This document shows, one piece after another, positions 4,260 through 18,171 of a DNA stretch of 36,632 bases (positions within the stretch are counted from its first letter, which is position 1; each line of letters opens with the position of its first letter). Below the pieces are notes generated by a model that saw nothing but the letters and a program-made list of their open reading frames with translations, had not been told where the DNA came from and ran no database searches. The translations under genes were made by a program, and so were the position numbers. Source of the DNA: a virus (Duplodnaviria; Heunggongvirae; Uroviricota; Caudoviricetes); the IMG/VR virus record IMGVR_UViG_2541047758_000014; one strand, given 5' to 3'.

Positions 4260-4552
4260 GCATCATCAACCACCAGGAATTACGCGAACTGGCGACTGCC
4301 GTGCAAAGAATACCCCTCCATGAATCACTACCATCTCGCGTGAGCTTACAACCGTCAGTGGTGTTGGCACTGCTGGATGAGTTGGAGCACGCCAGAACCA
4401 CGGCCCCTGCCATTCGCCTGACACTCCATCATGAAATCGCTGATTTCTGCGCAACGCTGGGTTCACCTGGCGAACCGGAAACACCGGAAGCAATACAGCG
4501 CGAGTTATTACAACGCATCAATAACGTTTTTGATTTTTTCCTTAACCAGTAA
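4256..4552 (+). CDS. Hypothetical protein
   Basis: 98 aa ORF; ATGA start/stop overlap with the upstream gene. Confidence 0.5.
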   Translation: MSIINHQELRELATAVQRIPLHESLPSRVSLQPSVVLALLDELEHARTTAPAIRLTLHHEIADFCATLGSPGEPETPEAIQRELLQRINNVFDFFLNQ

Positions 4553-4767: not shown

Positions 4768-5594
4768 AGAAATTCAAACTCTTTCAGATTCTCCCGCTTT
4801 TTGCCGCCATCCTGCTGGTTGGCTGCGATCGCGTTGAGCCAGGTAATGTGGGCATCAAAGTCAACAAGCTGGGCGACGACAAAGGCGTTGGCGAAGTGGT
4901 TGGCGTTGGCCGCTACTGGACTGGCTGGAATACCGAGGTTTACATCTTCCCGACCTTCAAACAAATGAAGACCTACGATGAGCCGTTCAGCTTTCAGATG
5001 AGTGACGGCACAACCATCGGCTATCACATCGGCGTGGCTTACAAGGTTGATCCATCCAAAGTTACCACAGTGTTTCAGACCTACCGCAAAGGCGTGGATG
5101 ACATTACCGACACTGACCTGCGCCAGAAGATTGCCGATGCACTCAACCGACTGGCCAGCAAAATGACCACCGATAAGTTTATCGACGGTGGTAAGTCTGA
5201 ACTGCTGGATTCAGCACTTAAAGATATTCAGGAAGAGATGACCCCCATCGGCATTCAGGTCATGAGCCTCTCTTATGTCGGTAAACCGGAATATCCGCCA
5301 ACCGTTATCGACAGCATTAACGCCAAAGTCACGGCAAACCAGAAAACCCTGCAACGCGAACAGGAAGTCAAGCAACGCGAAGCAGAAGCCAACATGTTGC
5401 GCGCAGAAGCTGCCGGACAGGCTGATGCCATTCGCACAAAAGCCCAGGCTGAAGCCGACGCCATTCGTTTACGCGGTGAAGCTCTGCGCCAGAATCCCGG
5501 CGTTATGGAGCTGGAAGCAATCAACAAATGGAACGGCACGCTGCCGCAATACATGACCAGCAACACCGCTGTTCCGTTTGTTCCGGTGAAGTAA
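4764..5594 (+). CDS. SPFH/band-7 (prohibitin/stomatin-like) domain lipoprotein
   Basis: 276 aa; lipobox LLVGC at the N-terminus; central region and Ala/Glu/Gln-rich coiled coil typical of SPFH proteins. Confidence 0.7.
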   Translation: MKKFKLFQILPLFAAILLVGCDRVEPGNVGIKVNKLGDDKGVGEVVGVGRYWTGWNTEVYIFPTFKQMKTYDEPFSFQMSDGTTIGYHIGVAYKVDPSKVTTVFQTYRKGVDDITDTDLRQKIADALNRLASKMTTDKFIDGGKSELLDSALKDIQEEMTPIGIQVMSLSYVGKPEYPPTVIDSINAKVTANQKTLQREQEVKQREAEANMLRAEAAGQADAIRTKAQAEADAIRLRGEALRQNPGVMELEAINKWNGTLPQYMTSNTAVPFVPVK

Positions 5595-6638: not shown

Positions 6639-9461
6639 ATGACGGCAGAGTACATCAGGGACTGGCAACAACCGCGCCACGCAGTGGGGCGTGAAGGAAC
6701 GGGGATCCCCGCTCCTGAATCCGCGCTTTCCTCCTGGCTGGATGCCTACCGGGTAGAGAACGAGCGCCGCCAGGAAATGGCTGATGCGGCGTTCTCCGCC
6801 ACGCCGCTGGGCAACCTGATTAATAAAAGCCTGGACGCACAGGAAAAACAGGACAAAACCATCACACTGGCAGGAGACGCCAGAAAACAGGCACGCGGCG
6901 CGGTGGATGAAGCCATGGCCTCGCTGCGCCTGCTGCCGTCCTATCTGCGCGATCCGCTTATTCGCCACCTCTCCTTCCTTCGCAAAAAACAGGAAGCCGA
7001 TCGCCGGAAAGGCAAAAAGAGCTGGCAGGCGGAACGCTATGCACGCGGAACCCTGCGCAAAATATTCGAACGTCTGGATCGCACTGACGGACGCTGGCTG
7101 ACACCGGGTTATCGCTCCCTTGCCGGACGCGAACGCCTGGACGATTTGCTTTACCTGCCGCAGCTCAACAAACACCAGATACAGACGCTGGCCACCATGA
7201 CGGCGGCGATGTTCAGCAGCACCTTCGAAAAACTCTGCGATGGCTTTGGCGCGACTGATGGCGAACTGACCATGGATGTAACGCTGAAGGCGTATCAGAT
7301 GCTGGCCCGCATGGCGTTACACCTGCACGCCATGCCTCCACATTATGACGCACTGACAACAGACAAAGACCGGAGGAACGAACCGGACACGGAGCTGCTG
7401 CCGGGCGCAATCCTTCGCCTGACCTGTGCGGAATGGTGGAAACGCAAACTGTGGCTGTTACGTTGCGAGTGGAGAGAAGAACAACTCCGCGCCGCCTGTC
7501 TGGTTTCCAGAAAAACATCACCCTATCTGAGCCAGGACGCGTTAAGCGAGTTTCGCGCACAGCGCGAGAAAACACGCGATTTCCTGAAAAGTTTCATGCT
7601 GGAAAATGAAGACGGGTTCACGATTGATCTCGAGACAGTGTATTACGCGGGAGTAAGTAACCCGGTTCACCGTAAGGCAGAAATGATGGCCACCATGAAG
7701 GGACTGGAACTTCTGGCCGAAGCCCGTGGCGACAGAGCGGTGTTTCTGACTGTCACCTGCCCGTCAAAATACCACGCAACAACGGAGAACGGTCATCCGA
7801 ACCCCAAATGGAACGGGGCCACCATGCGCGACTCCAGCGATTACCTGGTTAACACGTTTTTTGCGGCGGTCCGCAAGAAACTGAACCGCGACGGCCTGCG
7901 CTGGTATGGCATCCGCACGGTGGAGCCTCACCATGACGGCACCGTGCACTGGCATATGATGGTCTTTGCTCATCCGGAAGAAATCGACACCATTGTGTCC
8001 CACACCCGCGATATTGCCATTCAGGAAGATCGCCACGAGCTGGGCGATGATATTACTCCGCGCTTTAAGGCGGAGTACGTCGACGGCTCAAAAGGTACGC
8101 CAACCAGCTACATCGCCACCTACATCGGAAAGAACCTGGACAGCCGCGCCGTGGATGGTATCGACCCGAAAACGGGCAAGCCACGCGTTGACCACGAAAC
8201 CGGAAAATCAATGGCCGAGAGCGTGGAGCGCGCCATCGGCTGGGCGCGCCTTCACCGGGTCCGCCAGTTCCAGTTCTTTGGCATCCCCTCCCGTCAGGTG
8301 TGGCGTGAACTACGCCGCCTTGCCAGCCAGATGGCACGCAACCCGGAAGGCCCGCAACGGCTGAAGGATGACGCAATGGATGCGGTACTCGCTGCCGCTG
8401 ATGCCGGGTGTTTTGCCACCTACATTGAAAAACAGGGTGGCGTGCTTGTTCCACGCAAAGACTACCTGATTCGCACCGCCTACGACCTCGCAGAAGAGCT
8501 GAACGATTACGGCGAACAGAGCGTACAGATTTATGGGATCTGGTCACCACTCATCGGGGAATCCTCCCGTGTGTGCACGCATCCGGATAACTGGAAGCTG
8601 GTAAGACGCAAACCGGAAGCGGAAGACAGCACCCGCGAAAATGGTTTTGACCTTCAGGGCGGCCCTGCCGCCCCTTGGACTCGTGGCAATAACTGTCCCC
8701 GTGTACAGGAAACGAACAACAACGGGACAGAACAGCCGGAAGAACGGCCAGCACCGTGGCCGCAGCTCCCTGACGGCGTTGAAGTGAACGAATGGATGCG
8801 CTCACTGAAACGGCACGAACGCCGGGCGCTGATGCGTTCGCTTCGTGACAAACAGGCAAAAAACAGCAGCGATGAAATGCAGAGCTGGACACAGAGCCGC
8901 AAACAGCAGCGGCCTTTGCCTGATAACCACGAATTACTCGCTAAAGAATGGCGGGAGTCTGCTGAATCTCTCGGCCTGCATATCGGTGAACAACAGATGC
9001 AGCACCTGTTACGGGGCGGCAGTCTGTACGTTGACGGCAGCATCATTGCACCGCAGGGATTTGAAATTGTACGCAAACCGGATACCCGCCCGGACAGCCG
9101 AATCACGCAGCTCTGGCAGCGCCTGAGCCGTAATCACGGCGTAAGCAGCACGGAGATCCGCCATAACCCGGTCTCCAGCTATCTGGCACAGCTCGGGGCA
9201 TCAGACCCCGAAGCCGCCGCACGCCTGGCATCCACACTTCAGCAGGTCCAGAACACCATGAAAACACCCGTTACCGTGCTTTCTGACATGCTGCGCGCCA
9301 TTCGTGACGCAGAGCACGCACAGAGAATCAGAGAAACCACTGAACGCGCCCGCCGCAAAGCAAACCTGCTGAGGACTGGCCTGACCAGTGGAAACAAAAA
9401 ACAGACAGAAACGGGATTCACAAATCCCGTAAATGAGCAAAAAACGCGCCGCGATATATGA
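6639..9461 (+). CDS. A: Replication initiation endonuclease (P2 gpA / 186 A-like rolling-circle initiator)
   Basis: 940 aa; contains the HUH-type region HHDGTVHWHMMVFAHPEEI and Tyr-containing segment characteristic of P2 A; position after the early operon. Confidence 0.85.
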   Translation: MTAEYIRDWQQPRHAVGREGTGIPAPESALSSWLDAYRVENERRQEMADAAFSATPLGNLINKSLDAQEKQDKTITLAGDARKQARGAVDEAMASLRLLPSYLRDPLIRHLSFLRKKQEADRRKGKKSWQAERYARGTLRKIFERLDRTDGRWLTPGYRSLAGRERLDDLLYLPQLNKHQIQTLATMTAAMFSSTFEKLCDGFGATDGELTMDVTLKAYQMLARMALHLHAMPPHYDALTTDKDRRNEPDTELLPGAILRLTCAEWWKRKLWLLRCEWREEQLRAACLVSRKTSPYLSQDALSEFRAQREKTRDFLKSFMLENEDGFTIDLETVYYAGVSNPVHRKAEMMATMKGLELLAEARGDRAVFLTVTCPSKYHATTENGHPNPKWNGATMRDSSDYLVNTFFAAVRKKLNRDGLRWYGIRTVEPHHDGTVHWHMMVFAHPEEIDTIVSHTRDIAIQEDRHELGDDITPRFKAEYVDGSKGTPTSYIATYIGKNLDSRAVDGIDPKTGKPRVDHETGKSMAESVERAIGWARLHRVRQFQFFGIPSRQVWRELRRLASQMARNPEGPQRLKDDAMDAVLAAADAGCFATYIEKQGGVLVPRKDYLIRTAYDLAEELNDYGEQSVQIYGIWSPLIGESSRVCTHPDNWKLVRRKPEAEDSTRENGFDLQGGPAAPWTRGNNCPRVQETNNNGTEQPEERPAPWPQLPDGVEVNEWMRSLKRHERRALMRSLRDKQAKNSSDEMQSWTQSRKQQRPLPDNHELLAKEWRESAESLGLHIGEQQMQHLLRGGSLYVDGSIIAPQGFEIVRKPDTRPDSRITQLWQRLSRNHGVSSTEIRHNPVSSYLAQLGASDPEAAARLASTLQQVQNTMKTPVTVLSDMLRAIRDAEHAQRIRETTERARRKANLLRTGLTSGNKKQTETGFTNPVNEQKTRRDI

Positions 9462-9506
9462 AGTGCGCACAAAACAGGCGAAAGCGGGATTTAAAAATCC
9501 CGTAAA
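9412..9506. repeat. Two 22-bp palindromic repeats flanking the A stop, candidate parC-like centromere or iterons
   Basis: cgggattcacaaatcccgtaaa at 9412..9433 and cgggatttaaaaatcccgtaaa at 9485..9506; each is an inverted repeat cgggatt-N4-aatcccg; immediately upstream of parM. Confidence 0.5.
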
Positions 9507-9537
9507 CGGTTAATTAACCAACATAAGGAAAATCGAC

Positions 9538-10497
9538 ATGAAAATTTGTATCGACGACGGCTCCACCAACATCAAGCTGGCATGGACTGAGAATGGCGAA
9601 CGCCGCAACGCCATCAGCCCGAACAGCTTCAAGTCGGAATGGTCTGCGCCGTTCGGTGGCATGCAGCCCGCGAACTACATGCTTGATGGCGTGCGCTATG
9701 GTTTTGATCCGGTCAGCGATCGCTTTGTCCAGACGACCGACACGCAATACCAGTACAGCGATGTGAATGTAATCGCCATTCATCACGCGCTGGTCAAATC
9801 AGGCATCACGCCACAAGAGGTGGATGTGGTTGTCACCCTGCCACTGAGCGAGTATTTCGAGACAAACGCACAGCCGGACATGGCCAACATCAACCGCAAA
9901 AAAGCGAACGTTATGCGCTCGGTGGAGTACCAGAACGGCGAAGCATTCACTATCCGTAACGTGCGGGTTATGCCTGAATCCATTCCGGCTGGCTTTAAAG
10001 CACTGGCTGACATGAGTCCGTTTGAATCCCTGCTGATTGTGGATTTAGGCGGAACCACGCTGGATGTGGCAAAGGTTCAAGGGCAACTGGCAGGTATCAG
10101 CCAGGTGTTTTGCGATCCACACGTAGGCGTTTCCCTGATGGCCGATGCCGTACTGTCGGTGATGGCCACTAACGGTATGCGCACCAGTCACCACATCGCC
10201 AATACCATTATCGAACATCGCCATGATGAAGCCTGGCTGCGCCAGCACATCCACAATGACGCGCATTACGCCAGCCTGATGGCGGTTATTCGTGAAAAGG
10301 AAGAAACACTGAAACAACGCGTGATCCGCGCGCTGGCGGTTTTTTCGGGTTACGGGCGGGTGATGGTTGTCGGTGGAGGGGCGGAGATTGTGGCACCCGC
10401 TATCCGCGAAGTCTGCGGAGTTAATGCGACTTTCATCGCGGACGGGGTGCCACAGTTTGCTCTGGTTAATGGGCTGTACGCAATGGACAAGGAGTAA
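9538..10497 (+). CDS. parM: ParM/StbA-like actin-type partition ATPase
   Basis: 319 aa; N-terminus MKICIDDGSTNIKLAW and ISPNSFK...YSDVNVIAIHHAL closely resemble plasmid R1 ParM (MLVFIDDGSTNIKLQW...). Confidence 0.85.
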   Translation: MKICIDDGSTNIKLAWTENGERRNAISPNSFKSEWSAPFGGMQPANYMLDGVRYGFDPVSDRFVQTTDTQYQYSDVNVIAIHHALVKSGITPQEVDVVVTLPLSEYFETNAQPDMANINRKKANVMRSVEYQNGEAFTIRNVRVMPESIPAGFKALADMSPFESLLIVDLGGTTLDVAKVQGQLAGISQVFCDPHVGVSLMADAVLSVMATNGMRTSHHIANTIIEHRHDEAWLRQHIHNDAHYASLMAVIREKEETLKQRVIRALAVFSGYGRVMVVGGGAEIVAPAIREVCGVNATFIADGVPQFALVNGLYAMDKE

Positions 10498-10501
10498 ACC
10501 A

Positions 10502-10813
10502 ATGACGACACCAACCAGACGGATAAGTTTCTATCTGAAGCCTGCGGCCGTCAAGAACGAAAGCGAAGCATGCGCCTGGCTGGACAGCCTTACACCAGAA
10601 GCCCGCAAAAGCGGCCAACGCGTGGCTTTTCTGGCTGGGCTGGCACTTCTGAAAATGAATCCAGCAGAGGCTTACCGACTGGCTGCATGGGCTGACGATG
10701 AGGCGTTATCCGTGACACAAACCAGGACTGAACGCCCCGTGTCACAGCCAGTACCAACCGCACAGATAACCAATCAGATGGCCGGAAATATCAGGGCGTT
10801 ATTCCCCGAATAA
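10502..10813 (+). CDS. parR: ParR-like centromere-binding adaptor
   Basis: 103 aa; start at ATG 10502 inside track ORF 10367..10813; RRISFYLKPAAV...AFLAGLALLKMNP resembles R1 ParR; sits directly downstream of parM as in the R1 par operon. Confidence 0.7.
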   Translation: MTTPTRRISFYLKPAAVKNESEACAWLDSLTPEARKSGQRVAFLAGLALLKMNPAEAYRLAAWADDEALSVTQTRTERPVSQPVPTAQITNQMAGNIRALFPE

Positions 10814-11044
10814 GGCAATACGGTGAAGCATCCCCAGGGGAAGTGAAGCTAAACTTAAGAGGGGCGGATATAGACGCCCCGATTCACAGAAAAATTTATT
10901 GAATTTGAACGTTTTCAACGTTATGTTTTACGCAGATTTCAAGGTTTTGGGGATTTAGAGGCGGCCCCCCAAAAGTTGATACCGCCTAGTTGGTAACTTC
11001 GTCGTCAGACTGGGACTCCAACCACGCCAGCTGAGAGGTTGGCG

Positions 11045-11851
11045 CTATTTTTTACGCAAAGGGGGTAATTTATATCGCAAATTAACCTCTTTCGTTTCAA
11101 TATCTCTTGGCCCCTTCTTTTTATCAAAAAACAACCAGATATTGAATTTTCGCTCTGTCGGCCAGGTATCGTGCCGTAATGATTCCCACCCAAGATAAGA
11201 AGCGATTTTCTCTGCCATAGCCAGTTTCGCTGGAGAAGTGGCTTTCCTTTGATATGCACACATGACAGCCCCTAATAAAAAATCGACAAGCTGAATATGT
11301 TCCGATGTTTTTGAGTCTTTTGTTTCAACTAGTTTAATTATGTCCTTGCGCCCATATTTTCGGGCCAGAGAATGGTTGGCAATTATGTGAAACTCTTCAT
11401 CGGCTTTTTTGTAACGAGATGGCAGGGGATCAACTTCTATAAGGAACTCACATTCCGCATGAGGCCACCTTTGGATCACGTTACCTATTTTTGTTTCAAT
11501 AAGCTTGCAAAAATGCTTACGCATTGCAAGATCATAATCCCCACCATGATATGATTTTTCTACTTTAGACTTCTCAACAATAATACAGTGAAAAGCCATC
11601 CAGTTGTGCCTAAAAAACACATCAATGACGTCGCTATAAAAAGCTGCATTACGCTTTGAATGTGCTTTCTGCCATTTGAGCTCATCACTGCATCCATGCT
11701 TTTTTCTCAAATCCTGTACCATGCGAGTGAGTTCAGCGCGCCTCTGATAGCTCATCCAGAGACTCCCAAACCCGTAGAATGGCTGCCCATCAACGCCAGA
11801 TTCATCACAGGCAACATGCCATATCATTTTTTTCTGATTGTTATCTTTCAT
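11045..11851 (-). CDS. DUF3800-like protein, candidate anti-phage or accessory cargo at the A-Q hotspot
   Basis: 268 aa; N-terminal WHVACDESG and C-terminal IQLVDFLLGAV motifs as I recall for DUF3800; gene is clearly more AT-rich than the phage backbone; opposite strand to its neighbours. Confidence 0.6.
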   Translation of the reverse strand: MKDNNQKKMIWHVACDESGVDGQPFYGFGSLWMSYQRRAELTRMVQDLRKKHGCSDELKWQKAHSKRNAAFYSDVIDVFFRHNWMAFHCIIVEKSKVEKSYHGGDYDLAMRKHFCKLIETKIGNVIQRWPHAECEFLIEVDPLPSRYKKADEEFHIIANHSLARKYGRKDIIKLVETKDSKTSEHIQLVDFLLGAVMCAYQRKATSPAKLAMAEKIASYLGWESLRHDTWPTERKFNIWLFFDKKKGPRDIETKEVNLRYKLPPLRKK

Positions 11852-12010
11852 TGGTCTTGGGTTCTGGGGACTAAACGTGCTGCATCTAATTTAATCACAC
11901 ACATAACCTACTGATAAAGATCATTTTTATTCCTGTCTCTCACCAAATGGGTATTGAGAATGACCACCTGAACACACTGAAATAAAGGCGAAAATCATGT
12001 ATCGCCCTGC

Positions 12011-12040
12011 TGCACAATAGTGCACAAATTTGCACAATTT
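12011..12040. repeat. Three tandem 10-bp repeats (TGCACAA-N3), helically phased
   Basis: tgcacaatag / tgcacaaatt / tgcacaattt at 12011..12040; a fourth TGCACAAA at 12103..12110 and GGATCCGT twice at 12081..12088 and 12092..12099. Confidence 0.7.
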
Positions 12041-12420
12041 TTTTGAACGACTTTTTGCCCTTCCGGCCCCCGTGGCGGCTGGATCCGTCAAGGATCCGTG
12101 CGTGCACAAAAAAACGCGTTTTTTCTGCGCGCAGGTGACGGGGGAACAGCCCGCGTTTCAGGGGGTAAATAGCATTCCCTGAGCGATGTCGCAGCGACAC
12201 AACAGAATGGCTGTATTTCTCACGCTGAGCGTGAAAAAGACGTAAGGGTTTTTGATTTGATGGGTTGAAAGGTAAGGCCGTCAAAATCGCACTGAGGCGG
12301 CGAGAACATACAGTCAACGCGGTGGGATTGCGTAAGAGTCTGACCGTCGATGGTGGCGATAAACTGGAAGGCGTCGTGAAATTATCTGATTGATACAGGA
12401 GCTGGAGAGTCGGGGCATAA

Positions 12421-12445
12421 ATTTTTTATGCCCCGGCGAAGCAGC
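12421..12445. terminator. Perfect 11-bp-arm hairpin just downstream of the portal gene
   Basis: cggggcataaa-ttt-tttatgccccg at 12421..12445; no clean T-run, so terminator role is uncertain. Confidence 0.35.
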
Positions 12446-12461
12446 AGACAAGCGAAGCGCG

Positions 12462-13508
12462 TCAGGCTGTGGGCTGGGTGTCTAACAGTGCGTAAGGGTT
12501 AAAGCGGATCACCTCTTCGCCCAGCCAGTCATTGATGTGCTTCATGGCCTCCATGACGGGCATCAGCTCGTTAATTGCGTAAACCCGCGCGGCCTTCTCC
12601 ACATCACCAAACGCACTTTTTTCACCCGGCATCGCCCCCATCAGTTGCGGCGGAACGCGGTGCGCAGCCAGCACATCATCACGGGATGCCGCCTTAACAT
12701 TCATGAACTCATCCTTTGCGGTGATCTGCTGGAACGGCAAAATTTGCACCCCCTCTTTGCCCCCGTTGGGCGCATGAATGAGCACGTTTTTAAACGCACC
12801 ACCACCACGTGCCCCCTGTAGCGTTTCTTTCAGGGAGTCCATGCTTTCGCGGTTTACCTGCGCTGCACCGATGTAGATGATGCACCCGGCGTGGGATCCG
12901 TTGTCGTAATACAGTTTTCTGAACATGTCCGCCGAATGAGACAGGCTGGCCGAGAGTAATGCGCCGAGATATTCCGGCATGCCGTAGATTTCCTGGTTAA
13001 TGTCAGGATTCATCAGGTGGCACACTTTGCCAGGGCGAAACTGAAACGCATCCTTGCCATCCTGCACATACCACCATGATTCAAGATCGCTTCCGCGTCG
13101 CATGTATTTCGCCAGTGCGTGCCGTAATTTAAGCGGTTCGCCGAGCATATTGCTTCGAAGCTCAAGGAATGCGTTACCGAACACAAACCAGTCCAGCGCC
13201 AGCGCCGAGAAATCCTGCCGGGAAAGCAGCGGGTGCGGGATGTAGCAGCCGAGTAATACATTGCGCTTAAAGTAAAGCGCAGACTGATGCCAGGACGTTT
13301 GCCGGGCAGCTCTTGCCAGACCGTACCAGTCTACCGGGGTTTCATACCACCGCCCGTTATCAGCACAGTACATATTGTCCAGCAGATCATGCCCGGTCAG
13401 GCGATAAGGACCATCAAATGTGAATGCACTGAGCGATGATTCTTTCCTGAGCGCATCAGCGAGATCAATGCGTGAACTCATGCGCACTTTTTTATTTTTT
13501 CTGCTCAT
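12462..13508 (-). CDS. Q: Portal protein (P2 gpQ-like)
   Basis: 348 aa; size, position next to the terminase and sequence consistent with P2 Q; start overlaps the P stop. Confidence 0.9.
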   Translation of the reverse strand: MSRKNKKVRMSSRIDLADALRKESSLSAFTFDGPYRLTGHDLLDNMYCADNGRWYETPVDWYGLARAARQTSWHQSALYFKRNVLLGCYIPHPLLSRQDFSALALDWFVFGNAFLELRSNMLGEPLKLRHALAKYMRRGSDLESWWYVQDGKDAFQFRPGKVCHLMNPDINQEIYGMPEYLGALLSASLSHSADMFRKLYYDNGSHAGCIIYIGAAQVNRESMDSLKETLQGARGGGAFKNVLIHAPNGGKEGVQILPFQQITAKDEFMNVKAASRDDVLAAHRVPPQLMGAMPGEKSAFGDVEKAARVYAINELMPVMEAMKHINDWLGEEVIRFNPYALLDTQPTA

Positions 13509-15259
13509 CAGAACTCCATAACCGTGAAACGCTCGTTTTCTCCTTCGCCGCCAATCGGTTCGTTAATGACAGCAAGCATGGTTGCCCACGCAAGGTCGCC
13601 GTGGCTGATCCCCCTCGCGCGGTCCGTTTCGTAAGTGATAAAGCCGCCCGGTGTTTTCACCTTACGCACGGCGTTAAAGGCCGCGACCAGCTCGCGTTCG
13701 GCGCGATCGTATTCCCACCGCCCGGCACGCATTATTTGCAGCATTTTCAGTACCAGCGACCGTTTTGATGACAGCGTGAAGGTGTACGGAATAGCAGCAG
13801 GGAAAAACCGTTTCACTATCTGATAAACAGCCTCCCCGTTCCCGCCCGTCACATCAATGCCGATGTGTTCCACGTTGTAGCGATACGTGAACTCTTCAAT
13901 GACTCTGGCCTGTTCTTCAAACTCCAGCCCCTGAACGCGTCGCGTCTCCACCGTTCGAAAACGGCCACCAGGAACAGCCGGAGGAACCACCACGGACACA
14001 GCGCCGCTGTCGCCGTTACCACTGCTGCCGTTTGCGTCATACCCAATCCATACCGGACGATTCCCCATCGGGCGGGGAGCAAAAGGTTTCCAGTCTTTCC
14101 AGTCGTCGTATCCGTCAACACCGCAGCCAATCAGGATATTCAGGTTAAATGCCGATTCCCCTTCGCGGACAAACTCACACATATAGAGATTGAGGAACTC
14201 GTCTTCGGTATTTTCATCACGAATTTCGTCGATATCGGTGTGTTTCCAGCCGTGATTAACCACATCTTCCAGCGTGACAATTTGCCGCCACGTCCGGTCA
14301 GGGCAGATAAGCCCGTTATGCAGCGTTTTCCAGTCCACAGAAAAACGCTGGCGTTTATGCGAGGCCTTTTTCTCGTTCCAGCGGTCGCCGTTCCAGTAGG
14401 CGTATGCCTCGTGCGTTTCGGTGGATGGCGTGGAGAAGTAGGTGCGCCGCAGTCCGCTGAGGGTTGCCATAGCGCCAGCCACCTTGCGCAGTTCAGCAAA
14501 GCGACTGACCCAGAAAAATTCATCAAAATAAAAATTGCCCGTATAGGACTGTGCCGACGCAGCAGAAGTGCCGAGAAAATGCAGCTCTGCGCCGTTGGAG
14601 AGGATGATTTTATCGCCCCCTTTCAGCTCCACATCAACTTCAGCCGCGGCCTTCTGAATAATGCTTTTAAACTGGAACGCCTGACGACGCGACGCAGACA
14701 AAAAAATCTGGTTACGCTGGTAAGGTTGCGCCACATCGTCACGCAGCGCCATCAGCAGTGCTTCCTGTGCAAAATACCAGGTCGCCCCAATCTGTCGGGA
14801 TTTCAGGATCATCCTGTTACGTATCCCGGCTTCCCTGCAAAGGGTCAGGGAGTCAAACCAGCCCCGCTGATGCCACTCCAGCCTGCTGATGATTTTTTCC
14901 CGCAGTGCGGCAATCTGTTCCGGCGTGAAATGATTTTTGAGTTTTTTCGCCCGGCCTTTCTTTCCTGCGGCCATCACATCCGGCTGGCCATCATGTAGCT
15001 TTTTAAGCTGCCGGGTCAGCAGGTCTATTTCCTTAAAGTCACCGCCTGTTTTATTCTGTTTTTCAGTAAGCTGGATGAGGCGCGCATCGATGGACTGCGT
15101 GACACGCTGCACGGGTGGCGTTTCATCCCACTGGTCACGTTTTTTCCACGCATAAATCGTGTTCGGGTTTATTCCCATCAGACGTGATATTTCTGCGGGC
15201 GGATAACCCTGCCAGTAAAGTTGCCGCGCACGCTGGCGCACAAAAGCGTCCTGAATCAT
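13508..15259 (-). CDS. P: Terminase large (ATPase) subunit (P2 gpP-like)
   Basis: 583 aa; divergent from the O-N-M-L operon exactly as in P2. Confidence 0.9.
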   Translation of the reverse strand: MIQDAFVRQRARQLYWQGYPPAEISRLMGINPNTIYAWKKRDQWDETPPVQRVTQSIDARLIQLTEKQNKTGGDFKEIDLLTRQLKKLHDGQPDVMAAGKKGRAKKLKNHFTPEQIAALREKIISRLEWHQRGWFDSLTLCREAGIRNRMILKSRQIGATWYFAQEALLMALRDDVAQPYQRNQIFLSASRRQAFQFKSIIQKAAAEVDVELKGGDKIILSNGAELHFLGTSAASAQSYTGNFYFDEFFWVSRFAELRKVAGAMATLSGLRRTYFSTPSTETHEAYAYWNGDRWNEKKASHKRQRFSVDWKTLHNGLICPDRTWRQIVTLEDVVNHGWKHTDIDEIRDENTEDEFLNLYMCEFVREGESAFNLNILIGCGVDGYDDWKDWKPFAPRPMGNRPVWIGYDANGSSGNGDSGAVSVVVPPAVPGGRFRTVETRRVQGLEFEEQARVIEEFTYRYNVEHIGIDVTGGNGEAVYQIVKRFFPAAIPYTFTLSSKRSLVLKMLQIMRAGRWEYDRAERELVAAFNAVRKVKTPGGFITYETDRARGISHGDLAWATMLAVINEPIGGEGENERFTVMEF

Positions 15260-17370: not shown

Positions 17371-18171
17371 ATGATTACTCCTGCACAGCAACACTGGCAG
17401 AACGTGATGGCACAGCGCGCAGGCCGGGCGAATGAAGGCGTGGACCACGCCGCGCGTACCGCGCATGAAGAGGTGCTGTATCGTCTGCGTCTGGCACAGG
17501 CCCGGCTTAAGGGCGTACAGGCCAGAAGCGCGAAAGCCGCCATCAAAAAAGAGTTGTTGCCGGACTTTTCCGGCTGGATTGAGGGAACGCTGGAGGCTGA
17601 CGGCGGGCAGCAGGATGAAGTGATTGCCACGCTGATGGTGTGGGCGATTGACTGCGGCGATCTTCCGCTGGCGCTGCGTATTGGTGCATATGTGGTCCGT
17701 CACAACCTCATCATGCCGGATAACTTTGGACGTACTGCCGCCACGGTACTGACCGAAGAAATCTGTAATCCGGTGCTGACGCAGGCCGGGACGGATGCCG
17801 ACGCGGATTTATCCGCCTTTATCGAACCACTGGACACACTTTGGGAAATTGTCGCCAACCAGGACATGCCGGACGAAGTGCGCGCCAAATTATGCAAGGC
17901 GTGTGCCTTTGCCCGTCGTGGCCTGACCGATGCGGACAGCATGGCCTCATCACTGAAGCTGCTGCGCGAAGCGATGCACCTGAACCCGAACGCAGGTGTG
18001 AAACGCGAGATTGCAACCCTTTCCCGCGCCCTGAAAAAAGCCGATTCCGCAGACGCATCAGAAGACGCCAGCGCACAGCAGGCGCAGGACGAAAGCAGCA
18101 AAAGTAAAAAGACAACGCGGAAACCTGCAACACGAAAAACCACCGCGACGCAGAAGGCGAAGCGCGGTTAA
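17371..18171 (+). CDS. M: Terminase small/endonuclease subunit (P2 gpM-like)
   Basis: 266 aa; position after N; basic Lys/Arg-rich C-terminal tail. Confidence 0.8.
   Translation: MITPAQQHWQNVMAQRAGRANEGVDHAARTAHEEVLYRLRLAQARLKGVQARSAKAAIKKELLPDFSGWIEGTLEADGGQQDEVIATLMVWAIDCGDLPLALRIGAYVVRHNLIMPDNFGRTAATVLTEEICNPVLTQAGTDADADLSAFIEPLDTLWEIVANQDMPDEVRAKLCKACAFARRGLTDADSMASSLKLLREAMHLNPNAGVKREIATLSRALKKADSADASEDASAQQAQDESSKSKKTTRKPATRKTTATQKAKRG

Follow-up and report, generated by a model that had tools for sequence, protein, structure and literature searches.

A probable cos site with a three-plus-one array of TGCACAA boxes beside the portal gene of a P88-like phage

The segment between positions 12011 and 12167 of the 36,632-nucleotide stretch of viral DNA analysed here, henceforth referred to as the window, is probably the cos site of a P88-like phage. 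The four TGCACAA boxes within this segment would be terminase recognition sites, and the cohesive-end sequence (cosN) is predicted at 12132–12150. The window phage itself is P88-like (Xuanwuvirus, Peduoviridae) and a member of the P2 family. Its cos region is 93–98% similar to those of phages P88, Shae_phiSM, Chuche, P884B11 and others.

The gene order around 12011–12167 is the same as in P2 and 186, whose cos occupies the same gap. As is usual for cos in the P2 family, the segment lies after gene A and the cargo and before the 3' end of the portal gene Q, with the terminase gene P behind Q. The P2 annotation also places tQ at the same relative site as the hairpin found at 12411–12435 of the window. 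The features of the locus are given below.

6639–9461: replication gene of the GPA family (GPA-type)
9538–11851: variable cargo region
9538–10497: ParM (PF06406/PF21523)
10502–10813: ParR-like protein (PF10784)
11045–11851, minus strand: DUF3800 cargo gene
12411–12435: perfect 11-bp inverted repeat located by a repeat finder, a terminator-like hairpin just past the portal stop codon and the counterpart of P2 tQ
12462–13508, minus strand: portal protein, homologue of P2 gpQ (PF04860; 45–47% identity to the P2 and 186 portals)
13508–15259, minus strand: large terminase subunit, gpP homologue, with helix-turn-helix (HTH), ATPase and nuclease parts (PF06056 at residues 6–63, PF03237, PF17289)
17371–18171, plus strand: small terminase subunit, gpM homologue (PF05944)

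The gap adjacent to cos is a hotspot of defence-gene exchange (PMC9122126), and the cargo found in it varies across E. coli genomes (DUF3800, ead/Ea22-like and others). In the window, an R1-type partition cassette (ParM and the ParR-like protein, 9538–10813) was observed inside an integrative P2-like phage. No iteron-type centromere was found next to parMR in either the upstream (9461–9538) or the downstream (10813–11045) interval. The sequence GTGCGCACAAAAC at 9453–9465, just upstream of parM, resembles an interrupted TGCACAAAA box and is present as a single copy; this likeness is probably due to chance.

Box layout and its conservation in the P2 family

The initial annotation described three TGCACAA tandem repeats at an exact spacing of 10 bp, a fourth TGCACAA further on and a pair of GGATCCGT copies, all of which are present in the intergenic region, with the fourth box 72 bp after the third and the two GGATCCGT copies 11 bp apart from start to start. 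The cos-like string that it reported near 12296–12320, gaggcggcgagaacatac, does occur, although its true position is 12294–12311. The elements of the region, all given on the plus strand, are as follows.

12011–12017, plus strand: box 1, TGCACAA; outer edge of the conserved cos block, kept in at least 80% of 67 non-redundant cos regions
12021–12027, plus strand: box 2, TGCACAA; 10 bp after box 1, with TGCAT at the equivalent position in P2, 186 and P4
12031–12037, plus strand: box 3, TGCACAA; follows box 2 by 10 bp and precedes box 4 by 72 bp
12038–12046, plus strand: run of seven T and a GA directly behind box 3; conservation of at least 95% among the cos regions with this box type, not found in P2 or 186
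12052–12070, plus strand: spacer element TTTTTGCCCTTCCGGCCCC; moderately conserved (60–95% per column)
12081–12099, plus strand: two GGATCCGT copies (12081–12088 and 12092–12099), also a 6-bp GGATCC hairpin; from direct reading, alignment and folding
12103–12114, plus strand: box 4, TGCACAA, with an A run behind it; corresponds to the TGCATTAAAA that sits at the right margin of the P2–P4 shared core
12099–12133, plus strand: dyad symmetry that takes in box 4 and reaches the predicted nick; imperfect inverted repeat of 15 nt (−16.2 kcal/mol, z −2.8)
12132–12150, plus strand: predicted cosN, CAGGTGACGGGGGAACAGC; box 4 plus 29 bp
12151–12167, plus strand: left-arm flank CCGCGTTTCAGGGGGTA; conserved, end of the conserved block
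12294–12311, plus strand: gaggcggcgagaacatac, the cos-like string of the initial annotation; outside the cos core

The P2–P4 shared core of 55 bp was reportedly described by Ziermann and Calendar in 1990. The T run with GA at 12038–12046 is probably an intrinsic bend. The dyad at 12099–12133 is specific to the P88 lineage and is not conserved in Novemvirus-type relatives. No Rfam match to an RNA element was obtained for the region.

The TGCACAA word is not over-represented across the window (7 copies found versus 9.5 expected), and four of the seven copies lie on the same strand within 99 bp. When windows were simulated with a Markov model, any 5-mer in a relaxed three-plus-one arrangement appeared in 12 of 400 (3%); an exact 7-mer in this arrangement is estimated to be several orders of magnitude rarer than the simulated 5-mer. 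The count of GGATCCGT is not significant by itself (3 copies versus 0.87 expected, a number reached in 8 of 100 shuffles), and the hairpin formed by it folds no better than shuffled sequence (z −0.49). Of the two GGATCCGT copies, the first is confined to the P88 lineage, and the second has only its GGATC at a conserved position. GATC (Dam) sites were observed inside both copies, at 12082–12085 and 12093–12096. The second of these sites falls at −39 to −36 from the nick, a position that at least 80% of the cos regions with this kind of box have kept.

The right ends of the P2, 186 and P4 reference genomes were read directly for boxes and for the annotated cos nick. All three genomes carry three TGCAT boxes with spacings of 12–13 and then 10 bp, a distance of exactly 72 bp from box 3 to box 4, and a fourth box, TGCATTAAAACCG, that starts exactly 29 bp before the annotated nick. 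The feature of three distal boxes was derived from these genomes in this analysis, and the window displays it with boxes at 12011, 12021 and 12031 followed after 72 bp by the box at 12103 (spacings of 10, 10 and 72 bp). The proximal box of the window, TGCACAAAAAAA at 12103 (TGCATTAAAA in P2, 186 and P4), precedes 12132 by 29 bp, and the step of 29 bp from box 4 thereby reaches a G-rich sequence. Between P2 and its satellite P4, the 65-bp spacer is 19% identical, no better than random; the boxes nevertheless keep their register, and neither box 4 nor cosN differs between the two. The comparison with the P2 and 186 cos regions that had been proposed as a check on the initial annotation came out in favour of the boxes, which share the 72- and 29-bp layout, and against gaggcggcgagaacatac, which matches the P2 cos no better than a chance site.

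A total of 80 P2-like prophage loci from many genera was retrieved with the portal protein as a probe, and 2.4 Mb of sequence from these loci was scanned blindly for any 5-mer repeated with spacings of 9–14, 9–12 and 68–76 bp. The three-plus-one arrangement appeared almost solely just beyond the portal stop codon, and the last spacing was nearly always 72 bp. A box 29 bp before a cosN-like sequence was present in 70 of the 83 P2-family elements examined, for which the upstream boxes were also tabulated. The 72-bp distance between boxes 3 and 4, which was checked separately, is the same in P2, 186, P4 and approximately 60 related elements. The box words form classes: xCACAA (the class of the window), TGCATGA (that of P2 and 186) and a mixed CGCA-type in Xenorhabdus and Photorhabdus. 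Because TGCACAA boxes are paired with two types of cosN, CAGGTGACGGGGG and the P2-like GGCGAGGCGGGGG, the box word and cosN appear to evolve separately. Boxes were present in all 120 viral contigs found with the cosN of the window.

Two other repeat arrays were observed in P2-like loci. In Xenorhabdus bakwenae (locus L043, forward strand, approximately 9130–9430), mirrored three-plus-one arrays of GTAACC boxes lie about 1.2 kb beyond the prophage's own cos, with spacings of 11, 11 and 73 bp in one and 13, 10 and 75 bp in the other and with a C or G run after each; they are possibly a packaging or replication site of another element. In Symbiopectobacterium (locus L079, reverse complement, 4879–4990), about 12 tandem 10-bp units of ACGGTGAATT are located in the cargo region upstream of cos.

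The extent of the site was examined in 67 non-redundant cos regions of the window's box type. The conserved block in these regions covers 12011–12167; it begins abruptly at box 1 and extends roughly 35 bp beyond the predicted nick. Conservation in the block is highest in the boxes (box 4 together with the A run behind it), the T run that follows box 3, the GCGCG directly ahead of cosN, and cosN. The region was found in 1,190 of 5,426 complete E. coli genomes. In 16 phage records and in most of these 1,190 genomes, the match to the window opens with the first base of box 1 (12010/12011); ahead of it the cargo differs, and the swaps always spare box 1. A cos site with its edge at box 1 would also account for the point, 12010/12011, at which the exchange of cargo in the defence hotspot comes to an exact stop. 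Enterobacter phage phiT5282H, which is of a different genus and lacks ParM and ParR, keeps only 12011–12155 (75% identity) and retains all four boxes together with an invariant GCGCAGGTGACGGGGGAACAGCCC.

A satellite-like element was identified next to hpt in E. coli mip270_22 (locus L013, 1–10700). It encodes an HTH regulator, an Icd-like protein, a toprim primase, an integrase, an Ogr/Delta-like protein, its own P2-family major capsid protein and MazEF, and no terminase or portal gene was found in it. The element matches the window over 12010–12176 only, with the four boxes and cosN identical. The 5,426 E. coli genomes were probed with 1.4 kb of this element, and most of the probe was present in 56 of them; approximately 420 other genomes, which carry helper prophages, match solely its 167-bp cos core. 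The relationship of the mip270_22 element to P88-like helpers mirrors that of P4 to P2. Judged from these alignments, the boxes and cosN would form a functional packaging unit, and their sharing with the satellite is the strongest indirect evidence for it. The proposal of the initial annotation that the phased repeats are packaging (terminase) sites is the best explanation of the TGCACAA boxes, because they stand at fixed distances from cosN throughout the family and are retained by satellites whose DNA otherwise has nothing in common with that of their helpers.

Candidate readers of the boxes and other proposed roles for the repeats

In the proposed mechanism, the four boxes would be bound by the phage's own terminase. 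The bound terminase would bend or loop the 72-bp spacer and set the nuclease of the large subunit on cosN, where a staggered cut would produce a 5' cohesive end of roughly 19 nt. We infer the binding of terminase to the boxes, the identity of the subunit that reads them and the exact nick positions. Since P2, with TGCAT boxes, and P88-like phages, with TGCACAA boxes, both occur in E. coli, the box reader should be phage-encoded and the motif not set by the host.

The best candidate for the box reader appears to be the segment of residues 1–18 of the small subunit, with the HTH of the large subunit as the alternative. Window-type lineages were set against Xenorhabdus and Morganella lineages that are distant from them but likewise carry xCACAA boxes, and identities were also obtained between different box types (A versus B). 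The results for the three terminase segments are listed here.

Small terminase residues 1–18: 75% in distant lineages of the same box type, 39% between different box types
Rest of the small terminase: 39–43% in distant lineages of the same box type, 11–37% between different box types
Large-terminase HTH residues 21–48: 42% in distant lineages of the same box type, 36% between different box types

This contrast in identity indicates that residues 1–18 of the small subunit are selectively conserved with box type and that the HTH as a whole is not. The association between these residues and the box is suggestive, as it involves three or four clades and could be produced by shared ancestry.

Reading of the boxes by the N-terminal HTH of the large subunit (gpP) instead of the small subunit would leave the cos function unchanged and is a possibility to be taken seriously, although we consider it doubtful. 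A clear HTH is present at residues 6–63 of the large subunit (PF06056, HTH_23, E 1.8e-26), and the model of the small subunit contains none. Two positions in the recognition helix of the large-subunit HTH also track the box class, the helix reading N-T-x-Y with xCACAA boxes and A/P/T-T-V/I-H/Q with TGCAT-type boxes. However, residues 21–48 of the HTH taken as a whole hardly distinguish the same box (0.42) from different types (0.36), in contrast to residues 1–18 of the small subunit (0.75 versus 0.39). The small terminase was modelled with a mean pLDDT of 82.5 as an all-helical TPR-like repeat with an N-terminal helix at residues 4–16 and a basic disordered tail. No recognisable DNA-binding domain was seen in this model; a structure search with it returned only TPR-like matches with E values of at least 0.014 and no structural match at E ≤ 0.001, and no sequence match was found in the PDB. 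No relative of the large terminase subunit was found among solved structures either, and we know of no structure for P2-type terminases.

Roles outside packaging are improbable for the repeats. One such reading takes boxes 2 and 3 with the T run as a terminator, or the repeats as operators of the neighbouring cargo gene. A consensus scan did identify a terminator-like hairpin at 12020–12035 followed by the run of seven T, and in P2 the old promoter overlaps the TGCAT boxes, with the annotated transcript starting about 30 bp from box 1. The hairpin is nevertheless weak (5-bp stem, −6.7 kcal/mol, z −0.85) and does not qualify as an intrinsic terminator, while in 186 a separate terminator is annotated immediately ahead of the boxes and phiT5282H, as read from its sequence, has a terminator-like GC-rich hairpin with a T run at that place. 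The consensus scan returned no promoter-like site. Cargo genes also differ in identity and orientation while the boxes stay constant, and regulation of the cargo gene, which had been offered as a second possible role for the repeats, is unlikely given that the cargo changes in approximately 1,000 E. coli genomes and that similarity starts at box 1.

There is similarly little to recommend the binding of a host DNA-bending protein (IHF, Fis or similar) to the boxes in place of a phage protein. The A and T runs flanking boxes 3 and 4 and the use of IHF between the terminase-binding sites of lambda cos would be in keeping with such a protein. Against it, the box word differs between lineages that share E. 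coli as a host (TGCAT in P2 and 186, TGCACAA here) and tracks the terminase sequence, and no good match to the IHF consensus was seen by eye in the boxes.

Position of the predicted cosN

Within the cos site formed by the boxes, cosN is most likely located at 12132–12150, about 160 bases upstream of the site proposed in the initial annotation. On the top strand the nick is expected before 12132 (or 12134) and on the bottom strand after 12150, with an uncertainty of about 2 nt. An intermediate form was found in the E. coli 23CRST028 prophage, which carries TGCACAA boxes followed by GGCGAGGCGGGGGAGCAAG 29 bp after box 4; in a MAFFT alignment, this GGCGAGGCGGGGGAGCAAG aligns with 12132–12150 of the window. 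Prophages that combine TGCACAA boxes with the P2-like GGCGAGGCGGGGG at +29 likewise align column for column with the window at 12132. The sequence at 12132–12150 is invariant in phiT5282H and in the mip270_22 satellite.

The window was also compared with the P2-family cohesive-end type, a G-rich 19-nt sequence of the form GGCG(A/T)GGCGGGGAAAGCA(C/T). The best ungapped match to the P2 19-mer within 11851–12470 is 13/19 at 12134. In the register set by box 4, at 12132, the match is 10/19 with the CGGGG block in register; the sequence is similar but clearly diverged, and the intermediate prophages connect the two forms. Relative to the intermediate prophage, the window has 2 additional nucleotides before GCGCGCAGG and 2 fewer within GG(C/T)GA(GG)C, and it is these offsets that place the predicted top-strand nick at 12132–12134.

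Placement of the cohesive-end site at gaggcggcgagaacatac (12294–12311), with the repeats as accessory sites approximately 200–280 bp away, is very improbable. The string has GAGGCGG in common with the cohesive ends of P2 and 186, agrees with the P2 19-mer at 12/19 ungapped and is located between the repeats and the portal gene. Its description as a P2/186-like cohesive end is not supported, since an unrelated site at 12404 ties with it at 12/19 and 12134 scores higher (13/19). The string also lies outside the conserved 12011–12167 and 191 bp from box 4, as opposed to the family distance of 29 bp. It was found in just 2 of 39 related loci, both close relatives, and is missing from phiT5282H and the satellite, although the boxes and 12132–12150 are unchanged there.

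Two other positions were considered and rejected. The sequence CGTGGCGG at 12068–12082 resembles the 186 cos and is not conserved even in P88. The start of the P884B11 record, which corresponds to window position 12056, is not a physical end, as base 1 was set by its authors against reference genomes and the junction is seamless.

Phage Chuche, whose genome is virion-derived, is without 7 bp (GGGAACA) inside cosN (locus L003, approximately 4283–4300), corresponding to window 12141–12147. The gap may be a genuine alteration of cosN; alternatively, it arose in assembly across the physical ends, of which it would then be a hint at most. No phage record of the P88-like lineage split at cos was found in the collections searched. 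The 120 viral contigs mentioned above carry an intact cosN, 114 of them with a portal gene within 1.5 kb, and give no physical end. A literature search retrieved no published cos mapping for P88 or PhiSM and no description of cos for the P88 lineage.

Relation to known systems and meaning for the P2 family

The cos sites of P2, 186 and P4 are described in two sources as having 19-nt 5' cohesive ends and a 55-bp core common to P2 and P4 (PMC5694545, PMC9594776). The window resembles these sites in the location by the portal gene, the three-plus-one boxes, the 72- and 29-bp distances and the G-rich, if diverged, predicted cosN with CGGGG in register, as well as in the GC-rich flanks, the homologous terminase genes and the co-option by satellites. 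It differs from them in its box word (TGCACAA, as opposed to TGCAT(G/T)A), in the distance between boxes 1 and 2 (10 bp, as opposed to 12–13 bp) and in the runs of seven T and seven A after boxes 3 and 4, respectively. Its cosN, CAGGTGACGGGGGAACAGC, is identical to that of P2 at 10–13 of 19 positions, and its ends are predicted from sequence. The cohesive end of the Ralstonia P2-like phage phiRSA1 is GGTGAGGCGGGGTCCAAC (PMC5694545). Like window 12134–12144, it starts with GGTGA followed by a G run, although phiRSA1 belongs to a distant host and lineage.

Other systems offer analogies of mechanism or of appearance. In lambda cosB, the sites R3, R2 and R1 are bound by gpNu1 and are accompanied by the IHF site I1. 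Several short repeats that would position terminase beside cosN are found in both phages, but the likeness is one of mechanism, with no sequence relationship, and with respect to the terminase genes the repeats of the window are on the other arm of the genome. The small terminase of lambda has a winged helix, whereas that of the window is modelled as a TPR-like helical repeat; at the window's cos no IHF site is evident. The combination of a winged-helix small terminase and an IHF site between the repeats that characterizes a lambda-type cosB was accordingly not found in the window.

In plasmid R1, the iterons of parC are bound by ParR. The boxes of the window share with R1 parC the short direct repeats in helical phase and a nearby ParM/ParR cassette, and their 10-bp phasing resembles that of plasmid centromeres. 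That they are the parC centromere of the cassette 1.2 kb upstream, beside which no iteron-like centromere was found, is nonetheless excluded for practical purposes. The same boxes with the same spacing are present in many relatives that have neither ParM nor ParR, including phiT5282H, the 23CRST028 prophage and the mip270 satellite, and, as TGCAT boxes, in P2, 186 and P4. In inheritance the boxes go with the cos/portal side rather than the cargo side, and their distances to cosN are fixed.

The probable cos of the window is an ordinary P2-family cos with the family layout, its own box word and a diverged cosN. We propose tentatively, as an idea that may well not hold, that the three-plus-one layout is a general terminase recognition code of the P2 family, read by the N-terminal helix of an unusual, TPR-like small terminase, in which the box words would mark packaging compatibility groups and cosN would be independent. 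If this is true, the box word (TGCACAA, TGCATGA or CGCA-type) would decide which satellites exploit which helpers.

The analysis gives a likely position for the packaging site and the cohesive ends of a prophage type that is very common in E. coli. This may be of use for annotation, for setting genome starts and for constructing cosmids or transducing particles from P88-like helpers. The fixed distances, together with box words that differ by lineage and a small-terminase segment that matches them, may also provide a way into DNA recognition by P2-type terminases and into the compatibility of helpers and satellites.
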